Shown here piece after piece: positions 15,036 to 51,222 of a DNA stretch of 64,000 nt (its first letter is position 1; each line of letters begins with the position of its first letter). The stretch comes from a virus, in the IMG/VR virus record IMGVR_UViG_3300032124_000002, positions 15,455-79,454 of that record, one strand, 5' to 3'. The position numbers and the translations under genes are program-made. Under the pieces are notes generated by a model, which had not been told where the DNA came from, searched no databases, and saw only the letters and a program-made list of their open reading frames with translations.

Positions 15036-15593
15036 ATGTCATACCCAACAGTTATTAACGGACTTGATTTCCGTGACCTCATTTTTGTTGCTGACAACGA
15101 CCCGGTAACTGACTCGTTTATGGTGGCGAAGGCATTTGGGAAACGTCCTGACAACGTCATTCGTGATATCGAAAAAACTATTAAGGCATGCCCGGAAGAG
15201 TTCGATACAAAACTCAATTTTGAGGTTTGCTATAAAAACAATGAGTTGCAGAACGGAAAGCCGCAGAAGTTCTATCGACTCCGCAAAGATGGATTGATGC
15301 TTCTGGTTATGTCCTACACCAAAAAAGAGGCGATGCGTATTAAGATCGCCTACATCAACGCCTTCAACTGGATGTACGCGATGCTTCAGGTAGGGCGGCG
15401 CCAGTTTGAAGAAGAGCGTAACGCCGTCATGCTGGAGTTCCTGAAAGAGAAGGATGTCGCCAGTATGTCTGGTCGTCTGTTACGCCGGTGGGGGAAAGAG
15501 AAGAAGCCACAGCTACTTTCACGCATTGAGCAACTGGACAAGCAAGGTCAGTTGGCATTGCCCGGTTTTCCTGGTGCGCTTACCGAATCATGA
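15036..15593 (+). CDS. rha: Rha family regulatory protein (moron)
   Basis: TDSFMVAKAFGKRPDNVIRDI and KDGLMLLVMSYTKKEAMRIKIAYINAF Rha motifs. Confidence 0.88.
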   Translation: MSYPTVINGLDFRDLIFVADNDPVTDSFMVAKAFGKRPDNVIRDIEKTIKACPEEFDTKLNFEVCYKNNELQNGKPQKFYRLRKDGLMLLVMSYTKKEAMRIKIAYINAFNWMYAMLQVGRRQFEEERNAVMLEFLKEKDVASMSGRLLRRWGKEKKPQLLSRIEQLDKQGQLALPGFPGALTES

Positions 15594-42278: not shown

Positions 42279-43259
42279 ATGAGAGCACTACTAACCCCTG
42301 AGATTGCCCCACGCATGGGCGTTGTTCTTCTTCGCCCAGGTGCTGATCTCATGCCGATGTTCAGGAGAGGGCGGGTACTGATTGAGCCTGCACCGGAAAA
42401 ATACAGCGACTACGCAACCGGCGCTATCCCTCCCGCCACGCAGCCACTGGCAGGAGACCCGGTTTTGAAGCCAGTATTCGAAAACAAAGACGTCATTCTG
42501 CGCGCGGGTGGTATTAGCTCGCTGGAGTCCGAGCTGGAGCGTCGTTTTGAATGCCAGTATCCCCACGGCTCATGGCACAGCGAAAATTTTACGCTGTTCC
42601 GGCATGAGCCTGGCAGCATCCGCCTTTGCTGGGCCTGCGATAACCTGCTGCGTGATCAGTACACAGAGACGCTGGCAGGCATTGCGCGTGAGAACCTGGT
42701 ATCCTGGCTGATAACGGTCATCCGCTCGCAGCTGGGGTTCAACGAAGACCATCAACTGACGATCCCCGAGTTGTGCTGGTGGCTGGTTATAAACAATCTG
42801 GCGCACGTCATCCCTGAATCGCTGGCCCGAAAAGCCCTGCGATTGCCGGAAATTAAGCATCAGCCGGTGATGAAGGAGAGCGATATTGTGCCGGAGCCAG
42901 CGGCGAGCGAAGTGGTGCAGAAAAAGATTCTTGGTCTTCGCGTAGATCCTGAAACGCCGGAATCATTCATGCTGCGACCAAAGCGCCGCCGCTGGGTAAA
43001 CGAGAGCTGGACGCGCTGGGTTAAGTCCCAGCAGTGTGTCTGCTGTAACAAACAAGCAGATGATCCCCATCACCTGATAGGCCACGGACAAGGTGGAATG
43101 GGAACGAAAGCGCACGATTTGTTTGTGTTGCCGCTTTGCAGAGCGCATCACGACCAGTTGCACGCTGACACCGTGGCATTTGAGGAGAAGCACGGCTCAC
43201 AGCTGGAGCTGCTGTTTCGATTTCTGGATCGTTCGCTGGCAATTGGCGTGCTGGCATAG
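42279..43259 (+). CDS. DUF968 protein with C-terminal HNH-like Zn module
   Basis: CVCCNKQADDPHHLIGHG..KAHDLFVLPLCRAHHDQLH. Confidence 0.88.
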   Translation: MRALLTPEIAPRMGVVLLRPGADLMPMFRRGRVLIEPAPEKYSDYATGAIPPATQPLAGDPVLKPVFENKDVILRAGGISSLESELERRFECQYPHGSWHSENFTLFRHEPGSIRLCWACDNLLRDQYTETLAGIARENLVSWLITVIRSQLGFNEDHQLTIPELCWWLVINNLAHVIPESLARKALRLPEIKHQPVMKESDIVPEPAASEVVQKKILGLRVDPETPESFMLRPKRRRWVNESWTRWVKSQQCVCCNKQADDPHHLIGHGQGGMGTKAHDLFVLPLCRAHHDQLHADTVAFEEKHGSQLELLFRFLDRSLAIGVLA

Positions 43260-43272
43260 TGGAGAACGCATA

Positions 43273-43851
43273 ATGATTAACCCGTCCGAGGTTGGAAAAG
43301 CTGGTGAAATGGTCAGGCTGAAAACGCTGGAGGCCATCTGGATTCAAGGGAAGCTGCGCATGTGGGGCCGCTGGTCCTACATCGGCGGCGGTAGTGGCGG
43401 CAATATGTTTAACCAGTTACTGGCCTCCGGGAAAGTCACTAAAACAGCCATCAACGAAGCATTACGCACGATGAAGAAGTCTGGCATCTCGAAGCCAGAG
43501 CTTGAGGCGTTTTTTCGTGAAATACTCGCGGGGAAAAACAAAAGCGGCCTGGCCTTCTGTACAGACGATGAAGGACTGCTGATTGATAAGGTACTGGGGG
43601 CAGTCCTTATTACGGGTGGTCACAAAGAGCTGTATCACCTGCTGGTGGAGCATTACCGGTTACGGAAGAGCAAACGCCTCATAGCTGAAGAGCTCTATGA
43701 AAAGCATCCGGACTGGTGCTTTATGACATGCAGACGAAGAGTTGATGCATGGATAAGTTTGGCAGAATCGATGCTATACGCACCAATGTGTGACGCATTC
43801 GAGACAAATGGCGACAGATTTTACTTGCAAAGTGAGCCAGAAAATGCTTGA
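43273..43851 (+). CDS. Late antiterminator Q (DUF1133 type)
   Basis: WIQGKLRMWGRWS motif; last gene before late control. Confidence 0.8.
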   Translation: MINPSEVGKAGEMVRLKTLEAIWIQGKLRMWGRWSYIGGGSGGNMFNQLLASGKVTKTAINEALRTMKKSGISKPELEAFFREILAGKNKSGLAFCTDDEGLLIDKVLGAVLITGGHKELYHLLVEHYRLRKSKRLIAEELYEKHPDWCFMTCRRRVDAWISLAESMLYAPMCDAFETNGDRFYLQSEPENA

Positions 43852-45314: not shown

Positions 45315-45943
45315 TGAATCAAACACAATTCCAGAAGGCGGCTGGTATCAGCGCCGGGTTAGCTGCGCGCTGGTATCCGCATATTACAGCCGCGATGAAA
45401 GAGTTTGGCATCACTTCCGCTATCGACCAGGCAATGTTCATTGCTCAGTGCGGCCATGAAAGCCTCGGGTTTAACAGGGTAGTCGAGAATTTCAACTACA
45501 GCATCGACGGGCTTGCTGATTTTGTTCGTTACGGCAGGTTAACGCAGGATCAGGCCAATTCCCTCGGGCGCAGCCAGTCAGAAACTGTGTTACCTCTGGA
45601 GCGCCAGCGGGCTATCGCCAATATTGTCTATAGCAAGCGGTTGGGTAACAACAGGGCAACTGATGGCTGGGTTTATCGAGGGCGCGGACTTATTCAAATA
45701 ACCGGACTTTCTAATTACAGGGACTGCGGCAGCGGTTTGAAGGTTGATCTGGTGGCACAGTCAGAATTACTGGAGCAGTCCTCGTACGCGGCCCGAAGTG
45801 CAGCGTGGTTCTATGTCTCAAAAGGTTGCTTGAAATATCCGGGTGATCTTGTTCGGGTCACGCAGATTATCAACGGCGGGCAAAACGGGATTAATAACCG
45901 GCGCGCCCGCTTCCTGAAAGCAAAATCGGTGCTGGTGGGGTGA
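45314..45943 (+). CDS. Endolysin, GH19 family
   Basis: FIAQCGHES, YRGRGLIQITGLSNY and INGGQNG motifs. Confidence 0.93.
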   Translation: MNQTQFQKAAGISAGLAARWYPHITAAMKEFGITSAIDQAMFIAQCGHESLGFNRVVENFNYSIDGLADFVRYGRLTQDQANSLGRSQSETVLPLERQRAIANIVYSKRLGNNRATDGWVYRGRGLIQITGLSNYRDCGSGLKVDLVAQSELLEQSSYAARSAAWFYVSKGCLKYPGDLVRVTQIINGGQNGINNRRARFLKAKSVLVG

Positions 45944-45945
45944 TT

Positions 45946-46221
45946 ATGGGAATCGAAGCTATCGCGGGGCTGGTGGTCGTTATCCTGAGCGCTATCGCTG
46001 GCGCGTTTGGCATCGGTCATGCTCGCGGAACAAGTAAGGCGGAAGCCAAAGCCGAACAGCAGCGTACCGAAGAAAACGCCGCTGCTACTGTCGCCGCGGC
46101 AGAACGCCGTGCTGAAGTCACGAAAGGGGCCAGTGATGTACAGGAAGACGTTAAGCGTATGGGCGATGACTATGTTGATCGCGAGCTGCGCGAAAGATTT
46201 ACCCGCCCCGGTAGTCGTTGA
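45946..46221 (+). CDS. i-spanin (Rz-like)
   Basis: N-terminal TM plus Ala-rich coiled coil after the endolysin. Confidence 0.8.
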   Translation: MGIEAIAGLVVVILSAIAGAFGIGHARGTSKAEAKAEQQRTEENAAATVAAAERRAEVTKGASDVQEDVKRMGDDYVDRELRERFTRPGSR

Positions 46222-46579: not shown

Positions 46580-46678
46580 GGAAACCCCCATAGGTATGAC
46601 CACAATATTGTGGCCTGATCATTATGTCGTGAACATCATGGATAGAAAGTGAAACACACCAAATTAGTGAGATTAAGC

Positions 46679-47029
46679 ATGCCAACTTTAATACCTCGTG
46701 CGTGCCGTAAGCGTGGATGCCCTGGAACTACCACAGACCGCTCAGGCTTTTGCGAGAAGCACCGCAATGAAGGCTGGCAACAGCACCAGCAAGGCAAGAG
46801 CAGGCACGAGCGCGGCTATGGTAGCCAATGGGATATCAGGCGTGCGCGCATCCTGAAACGCGACAACCATTTGTGCCAGAACTGCCTTCGTAGCGGGCGA
46901 GCTGTCGCAGCAAAGACGGTTGACCACATCAAGGCCAAGGCTCATGGGGGAACTGATGACGATTCGAACCTCGAAAGCCTGTGCTGGCCCTGTCACCGTC
47001 ACAAGACCGCAACGGAGAGAACGCGATGA
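46679..47029 (+). CDS. Packaging-associated HNH endonuclease
   Basis: LCQNCL..TVDHIKAKAHGGTDDDSNLESLCWPCHRHKT. Confidence 0.92.
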   Translation: MPTLIPRACRKRGCPGTTTDRSGFCEKHRNEGWQQHQQGKSRHERGYGSQWDIRRARILKRDNHLCQNCLRSGRAVAAKTVDHIKAKAHGGTDDDSNLESLCWPCHRHKTATERTR

Positions 47030-47226
47030 GTTACACGCGCTGCACCTATTGCGGCTCAAAGATGCACACTGTCGCAAATTGCCCTAAGACGTGGGGTGGT
47101 TCCTCGCGACGTGCAAATCTGCGCTGCGGCTACTGCGGTCAGTCAGGGCACAACTCCAGCGCCTGCCCGCGCAATGCGACCTCCGGGCGTCGGCGCACCC
47201 TGAATGATGACTTTCATCTCGATTAG
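47026..47226 (+). CDS. Tandem CCHC zinc-knuckle microprotein (66 aa)
   Basis: CTYCGSKMHTVANC and CGYCGQSGHNSSAC (both Cx2Cx4Hx4C); ATGA overlap with HNH. Confidence 0.85.
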   Translation: MSYTRCTYCGSKMHTVANCPKTWGGSSRRANLRCGYCGQSGHNSSACPRNATSGRRRTLNDDFHLD

Positions 47227-47285
47227 TTGCATTTGAAATGATTTTGAATGAAATTAAATGTTGCAAATGAGAATGAATGTCAAAT

Positions 47286-47340
47286 AGGGCGGGGGGGGAT
47301 CAAATCTCTACGGGCGACCGCCCAAAGGACCGCCGCAGCC
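47286..47340 (+). other. Truncated cos-like region of an HNH-type packaging module
   Basis: G-run followed by gatcaaatctctac..ggaccgccgc just after HNH, then an abrupt switch to spanin sequence. Confidence 0.5.
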
Positions 47341-47497
47341 AGTTTTACTGTGGCAGAGCGTAAAGCGGAAGTCACGAAAGGGGCCAGCGATGTACAGCAG
47401 ACTGTTAGCCATATGCCTGCTGACGATATTGATCGGGAGCTGGGCGAGCACTTCACCCGCCCCGCTAGTCGTTACAAGGCACCATCTAATTGATTAG
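47335..47497 (+). pseudogene. Degenerate second Rz/Rz1 3' fragment
   Basis: Homologous to ~46075-46220 (gaagtcacgaaaggggccag.gatgtacag..cccgcccc..tagtcgtt); lipobox Cys codon is TGG at 47441. Confidence 0.8.
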
Positions 47498-47524
47498 TCA
47501 ATGGATAAATCGCATGACATAGAT

Positions 47525-47578
47525 GTTTATGTTTATGTTTATGTTTATGTTTATGTTTATGTTTATGTTTATGTTTAC
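47525..47578 (+). repeat. Hexanucleotide microsatellite (GTTTAT)8 + GTTTAC
   Basis: Read directly from the sequence. Confidence 0.97.
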
Positions 47579-47676
47579 GTTGATAAAAACTACAAAAAGA
47601 TGATTTTTATAAGTATTTTATGTTTTCTTTTTAATCTGATAGACTCGATAGGTTTACATTTTTGTATGGGCATGAG

Positions 47677-48198
47677 ATGGGCAGAAAACTTATCAGAACA
47701 ATGAAGGGAGAGGTTCTCGAAGGCTTTCCTCGCCCTGTTCTCGGAAAGCAAATCAGTAAGGTTTTGGGGGTGCGCTACTGCGCGGTTAGTGCTGAAGATG
47801 GCAACATTTATGATATAATCACTAACGCCGATGGTATCATTGAAAACTTAAAGCAGGGACTTTCTGTTTCACCTCCTCCGAAAGAGAACCTTCCACGGCA
47901 TCATCAAAATTTGAAAAGTGGTCAGTTTTTCTTCTGTATAGATGAAGATATATTTGCAGAACATCTTCATTTAGTTTATATAGAGGATGAGGTAATCATG
48001 GGTGAGCTTGCAACCCATGGAATCATTGCACCACGCATTGAAATGCATATCGATCAGTATATGTCGTACCTATCAGCCACCCAGGGTTTTTGGGAGGTTC
48101 TCCATGAAGAAAGTGAAAGTGGAACTGGAACTCAAAGCACTGTTGAAAGACAGCTCAATGCTGAAACTCAGAAATTTTATAGCAAATCAAATAAATAG
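47677..48198 (+). CDS. Tse2-like ADP-ribosyltransferase-fold protein (putative toxin)
   Basis: KLIR strand, GLSVSPPPKENLPRH and ATHGIIAPRIEMHIDQYMSYL..FW; start uncertain (TTG 47662 or ATG 47677). Confidence 0.6.
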   Translation: MGRKLIRTMKGEVLEGFPRPVLGKQISKVLGVRYCAVSAEDGNIYDIITNADGIIENLKQGLSVSPPPKENLPRHHQNLKSGQFFFCIDEDIFAEHLHLVYIEDEVIMGELATHGIIAPRIEMHIDQYMSYLSATQGFWEVLHEESESGTGTQSTVERQLNAETQKFYSKSNK

Positions 48199-48373
48199 CG
48201 GTGAAGTAACCGGGGATGAGATATATCAATATCTTTTTGATTTTGTTGATAAAGGCCTGTTAAGTGAAGAAGTTGAGGAAAAAGCTAACGATCTCATGGA
48301 TGCTTTATCAGGTTGGTGTGCTAAAGAATGTTGGTTAGGCACTGGCAACTATGGTCAGCAATTGACAGCATAG
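48104..48373 (+). CDS. Small helical protein, putative immunity/antitoxin
   Basis: GGAGG RBS at 48093, 89 aa, acidic core, LMDALSGWC motif; overlaps the toxin 3' end. Confidence 0.7.
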   Translation: MKKVKVELELKALLKDSSMLKLRNFIANQINSGEVTGDEIYQYLFDFVDKGLLSEEVEEKANDLMDALSGWCAKECWLGTGNYGQQLTA

Positions 48374-48398
48374 TAGGCTTCAACACCGTCCGCTTAAG

Positions 48399-48420
48399 AA
48401 CCGCCTTTGGGCGGTTTTTT
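48399..48420 (+). terminator. Terminator closing the moron
   Basis: aaccgcc-tttg-ggcggtt plus T-tract. Confidence 0.8.
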
Positions 48421-48464
48421 GTTGTGCACAACACAATATTTGAATGCTAATCATTATCATTTAT

Positions 48465-48530: not shown

Positions 48531-48622
48531 TTCATAGTCATCATCATCATGTGCACAGGTTATTGATTTTCCAGATGTCGGATTTTCAATGATGTCGAAT
48601 CGTATAAAAAGTGTTCACCATC

Positions 48623-49114
48623 ATGGACCAGGAAATCGCTACTTTAAAACTCAATATCAACCAGCTTGCCGGGATTACTGGCGTACACCGCCAGACCGTC
48701 GCTACCAGGCTAAAAAATGTCAGTCCCGCCCAGGGAAGCAACAGCAAACTTAAGTTGTATCTTGTCACCGATATTCTGACAGAATTAATGATCCCGACGG
48801 TTTCCTCATCGAATCTTGAAGAGATGACACCCCCTGATCGCCTCGCTCACTGGAAAGCAGAAAACGAGCGGTTGAAATTTGAAGTAGATACCAAGCAACT
48901 TATCCCCGCCGAAGACGTCGCACGTGAATTTTCAATGATGGCGAAAGCCGTCGTCATGGTACTTGAAACACTTCCGGACATTCTTGAGCGCGACTGTGCA
49001 CTTACGCCGGTTGCGGTATCACGCGTGCAAAGCGTGATTGATGACCTGCGCGATCAGGTTGCTCAAAAAGTAATGGACGCTGAACCAGAGGAGGATGAGC
49101 CAGAGGAGGACTGA
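48623..49114 (+). CDS. Terminase small subunit (Nu1/DUF1441-like)
   Basis: HTH LNINQLAGITGVHRQTV; follows cos. Confidence 0.88.
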   Translation: MDQEIATLKLNINQLAGITGVHRQTVATRLKNVSPAQGSNSKLKLYLVTDILTELMIPTVSSSNLEEMTPPDRLAHWKAENERLKFEVDTKQLIPAEDVAREFSMMAKAVVMVLETLPDILERDCALTPVAVSRVQSVIDDLRDQVAQKVMDAEPEEDEPEED

Positions 49115-51222
49115 TGACAAAACGGGCATCTGCCAAGGGGATACGCCGCGATGTCTCCGGTATTCTTCGTGCCCCACGTCGTATGCAGGTGGCCGATGCG
49201 GTCAGCTCATATATGCGTGTGCCGATGGGGGCGGGTAACTCCGTACCATGGGACCCCAATCTGGCCCCTTATATTATTGAGCCGATGAATTGTCTGGCAT
49301 CCCGTGAATATGATGCGGTGGTGTTTGTCGGACCGGCCCGAACCGGGAAAACGATTGGCCTGATTGATGGCTGGATTGTCTACAACATCGTTTGTGATCC
49401 CGCTGACATGCTGGTTATTCAGGTCTCCGAAGAGAAAGCGCGTGAACATTCCAAGAAACGCCTCGATCGCACATTCCGGTGTAGTCCGGAAGTAAAATCG
49501 CGACTCAGTCCGCGTCGTAACGACAATAACGTTCACGACCGCACCTTCCGGGCCGGTAACTATCTCAAACTGGGCTGGCCGTCAGTCAACATTATGTCGT
49601 CGTCAGACTATAAAAGCGTGGCGTTGACTGACTATGACCGCTTTCCTGAAGATATTGACGGGGAAGGTGATGCATTTTCCCTGGGTTCGAAACGTACCAC
49701 TACGTTTATGTCCAGCGGCATGACTCTGGTTGAGAGTTCACCTGGCCGAGATATTCGTGACACGAAATGGCGACCAAACACTGCACATGAGGCACCGCCG
49801 ACTACCGGCATATTATCGTTGTTTAATCGTGGTGACCGCCGCCGCCTTTACTGGCCTTGCCCGCATTGCGGAGAATATTTTCAGCCGGAGGTTGCAAATA
49901 TGACGGGCTACCGGGATTCCCTTGATCCCGTTGTGGCAAGTGAGTCTGCATATCTCCAGTGCCCGGCCTGCAAAGGCAGGATCACCGCAGATATGAAACG
50001 TGAACTGAATATCCGCCATGTCTGGTTACGCGATGGAGAAAAAATAGACCGTGATGGCAACAGATTTGGGGAGCCGCGGCGATCACGTATCGCTTCATTC
50101 TGGATGGAGGGGCCTGCGGCTGCATATCAGACATGGTCGCAGATGATATACAAATTCCTGACTGCTGAGCAGGAATATGAGTCCACCCAGAGTGAAGAGA
50201 CGCTGAAAACGGTAGTTAATACCGACTTTGGTCGGCCTTATCTACCCCGAGCCAGTCTCGAACAACGTAAGAGTGAGCTGCTCGAACGACGCGCTGAAGA
50301 CGTGCCGAAGCGATCTGTACCAGATGGTGTGCTCTTTATGACTGCAACCGTTGATGTGCAGGGCGGTAAATCCCGTCGTTTCGTGGTTCAGGTGACTGGC
50401 TACGGTGAGCAGGGTGAGAGATGGCTGGTCGATCGCTACAACATCCGCCAGTCTCTGCGGGCAAACGAGCACGGTGAATGTTACTCCATCGATCCGGCAA
50501 GTTACCCGGAAGACTGGGATTTACTTTTGTCTGACGTGTTCGAAAAGTCATGGCCCTTAGCGAGTAACCCGTCAAAACGCATGCGGCTCATGGCGATGGC
50601 TGTCGATTCCGGCGGTGAGGATGGTGTCACCGATAACGCATATAAGTTCTGGCGTAAGTGTCGCCGGGATGGGCTTGGTAAAAAGATTTTCCTCTTCAAG
50701 GGCGACAGTGTCCGACGCTCAAAACTAATTACCCGAACATTTCCTGATAACACTGACAGATCAACTCGCCGGGCAAAAGCCGCTGGCGATGTGCCGCTTT
50801 ACCTTCTTCAGACTGATGCGCTGAAAGATCAGGTGAATAACGCCCTGTGGCGAGAATCACCCGGCCCGAACTATGTGCATTTCCCTAAATGGCTCGGCAG
50901 CTGGTTTTACGATGAGCTGACCTATGAGGAACGTTCACCCGATGGAAAATGGAGCAAACCGGGCCGAGGTCCGAATGAAGCTTTCGATCTACTCGTTTAT
51001 GCCGATGCGCTGGCCATATTGCACGGATACGAAAAGATCAAATGGCCGGATGCGCCTGAATGGGCGAGGCGGACAACGTGGATCGAAGAAAGCACGCCGG
51101 AAACTGGCGAAGCGTCACCCACGTTATCAGCAAAAACGACCCATAGCAGAAAAAAACGGAAGGCAAATAAGCCGGATGTTGAAAACAATCCGTGGACTAC
51201 ATCATCAGGAGGCTGGGTGTGA
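49114..51222 (+). CDS. Terminase large subunit (lambda GpA family)
   Basis: GPARTGKT Walker A, DYDRF, CPHC..CPAC, NEAFDLLVYA. Confidence 0.95.
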   Translation: MTKRASAKGIRRDVSGILRAPRRMQVADAVSSYMRVPMGAGNSVPWDPNLAPYIIEPMNCLASREYDAVVFVGPARTGKTIGLIDGWIVYNIVCDPADMLVIQVSEEKAREHSKKRLDRTFRCSPEVKSRLSPRRNDNNVHDRTFRAGNYLKLGWPSVNIMSSSDYKSVALTDYDRFPEDIDGEGDAFSLGSKRTTTFMSSGMTLVESSPGRDIRDTKWRPNTAHEAPPTTGILSLFNRGDRRRLYWPCPHCGEYFQPEVANMTGYRDSLDPVVASESAYLQCPACKGRITADMKRELNIRHVWLRDGEKIDRDGNRFGEPRRSRIASFWMEGPAAAYQTWSQMIYKFLTAEQEYESTQSEETLKTVVNTDFGRPYLPRASLEQRKSELLERRAEDVPKRSVPDGVLFMTATVDVQGGKSRRFVVQVTGYGEQGERWLVDRYNIRQSLRANEHGECYSIDPASYPEDWDLLLSDVFEKSWPLASNPSKRMRLMAMAVDSGGEDGVTDNAYKFWRKCRRDGLGKKIFLFKGDSVRRSKLITRTFPDNTDRSTRRAKAAGDVPLYLLQTDALKDQVNNALWRESPGPNYVHFPKWLGSWFYDELTYEERSPDGKWSKPGRGPNEAFDLLVYADALAILHGYEKIKWPDAPEWARRTTWIEESTPETGEASPTLSAKTTHSRKKRKANKPDVENNPWTTSSGGWV

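Follow-up and report, generated by a model that had tools for sequence, protein, structure and literature searches.

A stretch of viral DNA of 64,000 nucleotides, covering positions 15,455 to 79,454 of the 89.8-kb provirus held in IMG/VR as IMGVR_UViG_3300032124_000002 (hereafter the window), carries a cassette of two overlapping genes between its lysis and terminase genes. The first, ORF1 (47677-48198, plus strand; 173 aa), is a divergent member of the Tse2 superfamily which the current Pfam model misses. The second, ORF2 (48104-48373, plus strand; 89 aa), is, as judged from its conservation across related loci, the cognate partner of ORF1, and belongs to an undescribed family of putative immunity or antitoxin proteins. 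We consider the cassette a real and well-supported toxin-immunity unit, for which an antiviral role is plausible. The reading which we favour, with moderate confidence, is that of a mobile toxin-immunity cassette of lambdoid prophages, most likely maintained for conflict with other phages.

ORF1 and the Tse2 clade

The frame of ORF1 is open from a TTG at 47662, and its start was set at the ATG at 47677 because all homologues begin with MGRKLIR. Residues 1-142 (47677..48102, plus strand) make up a Tse2-type toxin domain with an ADP-ribosyltransferase (ART) fold, while residues 143-173 (48103..48198, plus strand) form a tail which only the prophage subfamily has and which ORF2 covers in full. 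An earlier note, made from the letters of the window and without database searches, had picked out in ORF1 an L-I-R strand (containing R7), the motif GLSVSP..NLP.H, and ATHGIIAPRIEMHIDQYMSYL..FW, all of which are present as described. The Tse2 motifs which that note cited are likewise real, and can be read in the chain of PDB entry 5AKO.

Assignment of ORF1 to the Tse2 superfamily follows from profile and structure evidence, and not from its direct Pfam score. Its close family consists of 13 clusters from Enterobacter, Cronobacter, Rahnella, Serratia and metagenomes, and only three of these 13 homologues give any match to PF18648 (ADPRTs_Tse2). An exhaustive search of 1.84 billion representative proteins with the profile of this close family (A1) recovered 47 relatives at E < 1e-3. 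Most of these are stand-alone proteins of 120-150 aa and some are the C-terminal tips of Rhs-type proteins, with the motif which ends the Rhs core seen in P0036, P0037, P0044, P0050, P0053 and P0065. PF18648 was matched by 16 of 43 relatives (best E 9e-11), its cut-off being passed by P0028 (32.0 bits) and P0037 (30.9 bits); P0028 had itself been recovered with A1 at E 1e-9. The earlier note had proposed PF18648 as a check on ORF1, and it is this profile link to members above the cut-off, rather than the score of ORF1 itself (given with the contrary evidence below), that sustains the proposal.

Structural comparison points the same way. An AlphaFold2 model built from a 53-sequence alignment of the ORF1 family (A3), which replaced a poor model made from only 13 close sequences (pLDDT 57.6), reached a pLDDT of 88 overall and exceeded 90 for residues 1-143. 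When this model was compared with 48,161 PDB chains using VIA-align, Tse2 (5AKO) was the top match (Z 8.6, root-mean-square deviation 3.8 Å, 120 residues aligned), and nearly all of the lower rows were ART-superfamily proteins, among them KptA/Tpt1, HopF, RES, TccC3, TreX, PltA, Scabin and DarT, as well as diphtheria toxin, LT, Arr, ParT, MbcT and pierisin. Foldseek also placed a Tse2 chain first among PDB entries (5ako_C, probability 1.00, TM-score 0.48/0.53). Among AFDB clusters, the best match was to an Rhs C-terminal domain (E 5.5e-9, TM-score 0.65), and entries named 'Tse2 ADP-ribosyltransferase toxin domain' were found at E 1e-7. The suggestion of the earlier note that ORF1 adopts a Tse2-type ART fold is thus upheld by the model, and ORF1 may, by extension, perform ART chemistry.

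The polar residues conserved across the 53-sequence alignment are R7 (45/46), R33 (49/53), D46 (53/53), S63 (53/53), D104 (46/53) and H114 (52/53), and ORF1 itself keeps R7, R33, D46, G61-x-S63-V64, D104, H114, P119 and W139. The Tse2 chain of 5AKO (..PDIV..GGTSVF..LKVKQD..ATHYTIMPAKPM..) aligns motif for motif with the ORF1 family profile, such that D, G-x-S-V, L..D and H-x-x-I-x-P-x3-M are lined up in turn, in an alignment which is not significant alone (E 0.44). Searches of PDB sequences by phmmer and hmmsearch with ORF1, A1, A2 and A3 returned no significant match; the top-ranking rows of the PDB sequence searches for ORF1, namely Spc110, an ABC-transporter binding protein and phosphoglucomutase, were set aside as chance matches. 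The viral structures of BFVD held no match to ORF1 at E up to 0.001.

The partner protein ORF2

A homologue of ORF2 lies 3' of every ORF1 homologue for which DNA was examined (L001, L003, L005, L009, L010 and short contigs), and the start codon of each falls at the boundary of the toxin domain. The pairing extends to toxins which are only 30-35% identical to ORF1, beside which members of the partner family were recognised through hhalign or BLASTP. Thus, partners encoded on a Klebsiella IncF plasmid and a Pantoea plasmid are linked to ORF2 by pairwise comparison (E 3e-8), while hhalign connects it to the partners on 5.5-kb Mob plasmids (98.8%), on a soil contig (98.3%), and adjoining P0028, the relative which passes the PF18648 cut-off (95.7%). 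A C-terminal motif, LDALSGxC...IG.G.Y (in shorter form LDALSGxC..G.G.Y), is what defines this family, aligned as A7 (29 sequences). Neither ORF2 nor any of the 29 family members has a match in Pfam, and the A7 profile matched no PDB sequence, the chains of Tsi2 included. Pfam scans gave no helix-turn-helix (HTH), ribbon-helix-helix, AbrB or macrodomain match for ORF2, and an ESM Atlas look-up was uninformative (scores 0.80-0.82).

The complex predicted for ORF1 and ORF2 scored an ipSAE of 0.89, while the best of three controls scored 0.00; of 80 solved complexes, 58 attained this mark, as did 2 of 110 mismatched pairs, counts which are approximate here as custom alignments were used. On ORF1, the predicted interface comprises residues 26-28, 33, 38-48, 59-61, 63, 70-78 and 113-114, and so includes the invariant R33, D46, G61, S63 and H114. 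On ORF2, it comprises residues 62-76 (LMDALSGWCAKECW), which contain the conserved motif. The prediction supports, but does not prove, binding of ORF2 to ORF1 and occlusion of the conserved cleft. Taken with the conserved pairing, it bears out the view of the earlier note that ORF2 is the cognate partner of ORF1, and the two probably constitute a toxin-immunity pair.

As the earlier note had described, ORF2 begins within the 3' end of ORF1 and is preceded by a strong Shine-Dalgarno sequence, GGGAGG (48092-48097, plus strand), read from the sequence 6 nt before its ATG. The Shine-Dalgarno sequence of ORF1 is weak, and the difference between the two fits an excess of inhibitor. The toxin domain ends at residue 142 of ORF1 and ORF2 starts at the next nucleotide; the final 95 nt of ORF1 are also read as part of ORF2, in the +1 frame.

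Selection appears to act differently on the two frames of this overlap. Outside it, variability at third codon positions was 0.52 and 0.54 in the genes' own frames, against 0.21-0.28 at positions 1 and 2. Within it, variability across six loci peaked at position 3 of ORF2 codons (0.387) and was lowest at position 3 of ORF1 codons (0.243). The overlap therefore shows the codon pattern of ORF2, which makes ORF2 the constrained frame and the tail of ORF1 an overprinted extension. This tail, residues 143-173, is restricted to the prophage subfamily in alignment A3 and modelled with low confidence (pLDDT 48-61); it carries no codon-position signature of its own, yet none of the six diverged prophage loci departs from its length of 31-32 codons. 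The plasmid relatives have no tail of this type, and the overlap between their toxin and partner genes amounts to just 4-20 nt. We also considered whether a programmed frameshift might fuse ORF1 to ORF2, but rejected this in view of the strong Shine-Dalgarno sequence and ATG which ORF2 possesses in all loci and the short overlap in plasmids.

Genomic slot, distribution and upstream region

The cassette was found between the spanin genes and terS in eight loci (the window, L001, L003, L005, L009, L010, L014 and L015). Six of these were typed by packaging module, and they featured three kinds (HNH+Terminase_4+TerL, DUF1441+GpA and Nu1+GpA). As the same slot is occupied alongside three different packaging modules, the cassette moves as a moron. 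It is rare, occurring in 3 loci among 2.9 million IMG/VR contigs; blastn and tblastn matched ORF1 to none of 50,697 phage records and to none of 5,426 complete E. coli genomes, and no locus of the ORF1 subfamily was present in 185,579 species-representative genomes. The cassette was found in about 19 DNA runs belonging to some 13 studies.

Two further observations on these loci deserve mention. Metagenomic plasmids of 5.5 kb with MobC/relaxase genes (L020-L022; 24 contigs) devote a large share of their length to a 128-aa toxin relative (P0026) and a 111-aa partner, a layout which recalls colicin-type plasmids, but the toxin has no uptake domain. In a Serratia prophage (L005:1832-3471), the region separating Q from the lysis genes contains a gene encoding HTH and Peptidase_M78 domains and, after it, a DUF4411 gene; these may represent another late-region accessory or defence pair.

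Within the window, the cassette is preceded by genes for a Q antiterminator (43093-43851), two holins, an endolysin and Rz (45940-46221), and followed by terS (48611-49114) and terL (49114-51222). Its GC content (0.35-0.43 over 47350-48400) is lower than that of both flanks (0.51-0.60), and an intrinsic terminator (48390..48424, plus strand) closes it, with a stem-loop at 48390-48414 (9-bp stem) and a subsequent T-run, TTTTTTGTTG. Base composition and stem-loop hence agree with the initial description of an AT-rich two-gene unit that has a terminator of its own, and the gene order places this unit after the lysis genes and ahead of terS/terL. The interval between Rz and the cassette contains an inserted HNH endonuclease gene (46649-47029), a small Zn-knuckle ORF of double-CCHC type, and a second, partial Rz 3' end (47248-47493) which matches positions 39-84 of PHROG 1026. 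The region 46649-47493 looks like a recombination scar from the lysis/packaging junction of another phage, and is missing from L015, a locus which is 95% identical.

Upstream of ORF1 lies a hexanucleotide microsatellite, (ATGTTT)9.8 (47523-47581, identified by TRF), which the earlier note had considered a possible means of tuning the module. This was not borne out. The locus with a 99% identical ORF1 (L014) carries 8.8 copies, one unit fewer, and the repeat is absent from L015 (95% identical) and from L001, L003, L005 and L010, these relatives spanning 53-95% identity. On this comparison of sequences, the microsatellite is an unstable, lineage-specific feature which forms no part of the module. 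It is situated in a 67-codon ORF (47501-47704) which would encode (VY)9, lacks a ribosome-binding site and has no homologues in related loci; this ORF is probably not a gene. The sole block conserved upstream of ORF1 in an alignment of six loci is ATCTGATAG, within which TGaTAGACT (47637-47645, plus strand) is a candidate extended -10 element. A scan for consensus sigma-70 sites upstream of ORF1 gave no two-hexamer promoter.

Role of the cassette and relation to known systems

Three lines of evidence, all of them circumstantial, lead us to favour phage conflict over interbacterial killing: the lack of nearby type VI secretion system (T6SS) genes, the neighbours of plasmid relatives, and the existence of orphan partner homologues in phages. 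No hcp, vgrG, PAAR, Rhs or adaptor gene was found within 4-6 kb of the cassette at any of the six prophage and four plasmid loci examined. In both of the larger-plasmid contexts examined, a known anti-phage gene adjoins the cassette relative. On the Klebsiella IncFIA plasmid pP35B (L006:1-2213), PifA (E 8e-217) is encoded 1.8 kb away, and on the Pantoea plasmid pPagL15_3 (L007:4932-6408), Ppl (E 6e-290) is encoded 1.2 kb away; these regions may be small plasmid defence islands.

The orphan homologues occur in Kamaji and Slocum, virulent T5-like Demerecviridae of Serratia marcescens, a host genus which is also represented in the prophage subfamily (P0015). Each encodes a 150-aa protein (L008:3501-3953, ON287373.1 KAMAJI_00920; L023:6001-6447, MN095770.1 CPT_Slocum_191) with the whole partner domain (hhalign 98.5%, E 2e-15), and the C-terminal 31 residues of this protein, corresponding to the segment of ORF2 predicted to bind the toxin, are 61-65% identical to ORF2. 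No toxin homologue is present in any of the 50,697 phage records. From this resemblance, the Kamaji/Slocum protein is a candidate anti-defence 'immunity mimic'. Orphan antitoxin-like proteins of virulent phages are a documented means of counter-defence against DarTG, another ART toxin system (PMC11825919, PMC11481870). The small operon of uncharacterised genes to which the Kamaji/Slocum gene belongs stands between the gene for a receptor-binding protein and the dmp genome end. In Kamaji, the gene preceding the homologue was considered as a toxin relative and ruled out (hhalign probability 0.4%).

A mechanism consistent with these observations can be proposed. The cassette would be a two-gene moron which lambdoid prophages accommodate between their lysis and terminase genes, and residues 1-142 of ORF1 would act as a stand-alone toxin domain of the Tse2 clade. 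ORF1 would probably be cytoplasmic and, like Tse2, arrest growth through an NAD+-dependent reaction. ORF2, translated from a much stronger ribosome-binding site than that of ORF1, would serve as the cognate inhibitor, covering the toxin face which bears R33, D46, G61/S63 and H114 and blocking the putative NAD+/substrate cleft just as Tsi2 blocks that of Tse2. Loss or displacement of the immunity protein could then unleash abortive infection or exclusion on the part of the lysogen or plasmid host, with stabilisation of the carrier element as a possible side effect. For the defence role itself we would claim somewhat less than an even chance, and the fuller scenario, in which the cassette is an unrecognised abortive-infection system of enterobacterial prophages and plasmids that the orphan immunity mimic of Kamaji and Slocum overcomes, is put forward more tentatively still.

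The main rival to this proposal is an interbacterial weapon, in which Hcp would take up ORF1 as a small cargo effector, as it does Tse2, for firing by the T6SS of the host, and ORF2 would protect sister lysogens. At 173 aa, ORF1 is within the size range of Hcp cargo; many of its distant relatives are Rhs C-terminal tips; the order of toxin then immunity gene is that of polymorphic toxins; and Tse2 is itself a stand-alone cargo secreted through direct interaction with Hcp1 (PMC6099711). We nevertheless consider this unlikely given the absence of secretion genes noted above and the nature of the carriers, which are prophages, IncF plasmids and 5.5-kb Mob plasmids, and because an immunity homologue orphaned in virulent phages is hard to explain on such terms. 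A module devoted purely to addiction, stabilising its prophage or plasmid through post-segregational killing with no anti-phage role, would account for a two-gene toxin-inhibitor pair on small mobilisable and IncF plasmids, as well as for the weak ribosome-binding site of the toxin and the strong one of the inhibitor. It is rather improbable as a full explanation: family scans gave no sign of DNA binding by ORF2, and the lambdoid late-region position, the defence-gene neighbours on plasmids and the orphan homologues in virulent phages point to phage conflict. Addiction and phage-conflict roles are, however, not mutually exclusive.

Two further explanations were weighed. The cassette follows Rz and precedes terS within the late operon and has the same orientation as that operon, which would suit an enzyme of the phage life cycle, that is, a late ART expressed from the Q-antiterminated transcript in the manner of T4 Alt, ModA and ModB, with ORF2 as a regulator of timing. 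This is very unlikely for a rare, AT-rich accessory with its own terminator (3 of 2.9 million IMG/VR contigs, 0 of 50,697 phage records) whose close relatives reside on plasmids without phage genes and whose stoichiometric inhibitor is conserved throughout. Least credible is a decayed remnant, in which ORF1 would be a catalytically dead ART fold and its pairing with ORF2 a historical leftover. The sub-threshold Pfam score of ORF1 and the unproven activity of its family would allow for this, but all family-conserved residues are kept, the codon patterns of both genes are those of purifying selection (position 3 0.52-0.54 versus 0.21-0.28), and both genes are intact in all loci, at 53-99% identity.

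Several points weigh against a toxin-immunity cassette for phage conflict. With regard to ORF1, the direct match to PF18648 (residues 60-134, E 0.038) scores 15.1 bits against a cut-off of 26.6 bits, and in profile searches of PDB sequences the match to Tse2 fell short of significance (E 0.25-0.44). PADLOC-DB v2, PHROGs and NCBIfam provided no useful match for either ORF (in PADLOC, none at E up to 10), which agrees with the description of the pair in the earlier note as a candidate new system. ORF1 may, by analogy, be secreted, Tse2 being a T6SS cargo without a delivery domain. The earlier note had argued for an intracellular toxin from the lack of such a domain; ORF1 does start directly with the toxin domain, but the argument is weak for the same reason. 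With regard to ORF2, its lack of a detectable DNA-binding domain and the toxin-first gene order are unlike those of a classical autoregulating type II antitoxin. The evidence from defence neighbours amounts to two plasmid contexts, and the Kamaji/Slocum homologue could serve another purpose. Expression data are sparse: one RNA run yielded a single 162-nt contig within ORF1 (47925-48086) and none on the lysis or terminase genes, while in three RNA runs from the same species the cassette had no coverage, such that the RNA signal is a hint at most. To our knowledge, activity in the Tse2 family has been deduced from structure only. One review words the enzymatic activity of Tse2 as shown (PMC6099711), and a full-text search of the literature found no paper tying Tse2 or PF18648 to prophages or to anti-phage defence.

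The cassette is of interest on several counts. A concrete pairing is on offer, of a candidate defence cassette and a candidate phage-encoded antidote mimic, along with a new family of immunity proteins (motif LDALSGxC) which is absent from Pfam. Tse2 has been recognised as a potent T6SS toxin since 2010; a compact, phage-borne relative with a different family of inhibitor provides a tractable second system in which to find the target of this ART clade. Should the defence role hold, ART-fold toxins in antiviral immunity (DarTG, CmdTAC) would gain a third clade, and the lysis-terminase junction of lambdoid prophages further evidence as a defence hotspot. Should the abortive-infection reading hold, the Tse2 family, so far known only as an interbacterial weapon, would acquire an antiviral role together with a natural anti-defence protein.

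Among known systems, the nearest is Tse2-Tsi2 of the Pseudomonas aeruginosa H1-T6SS (5AKO; PF18648). Tse2 is the best PDB match to the ART-like fold of ORF1 (Z 8.6) and has the same order of motifs (R in strand 1, D, G-x-S-V, D, H-x-x-I-x-P-x3-M), and in each system a small stand-alone toxin is followed by a small inhibitor, which in the case of ORF2 is predicted to lie over the conserved cleft. The two systems also differ. ORF1 is about 20% identical to Tse2, scores below the Pfam cut-off, and ends in a 31-residue tail overprinted on the immunity gene; ORF2 is not alike to Tsi2 by sequence, with neither a Pfam nor a PDB match; and the prophages and plasmids which bear the cassette have no T6SS genes close to it. 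Rhs and other polymorphic-toxin tips carry a homologous Tse2-like domain (P0036, P0037, P0044, P0050, P0053, P0065 and the top AFDB match) and share the toxin-then-immunity order, whereas ORF1 starts directly with the toxin domain and has no Rhs core, PAAR domain or cleavage motif.

With DarTG and CmdTAC, the cassette would share a common logic, that of an ART-fold toxin restrained by a cognate partner on mobile elements. The orphan antitoxin-like phage proteins which act as counter-defence against DarTG (PMC11825919, PMC11481870) parallel those of Kamaji and Slocum. ORF1 belongs, however, to a different ART clade, DarT matching it at only Z 3.1-3.5, and ORF2 would be a small binder rather than a macrodomain enzyme, as in DarTG, or a chaperone-dependent antitoxin, as in CmdTAC. 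ParT-ParS, MbcT-MbcA and Xre-RES likewise combine a toxin of the ART superfamily with a protein antitoxin, and give weak fold matches to ORF1 (Z 2.6-3.9), but they have no sequence relation to the cassette, their antitoxins are DNA-binding or of other distinct folds, and their gene order differs.

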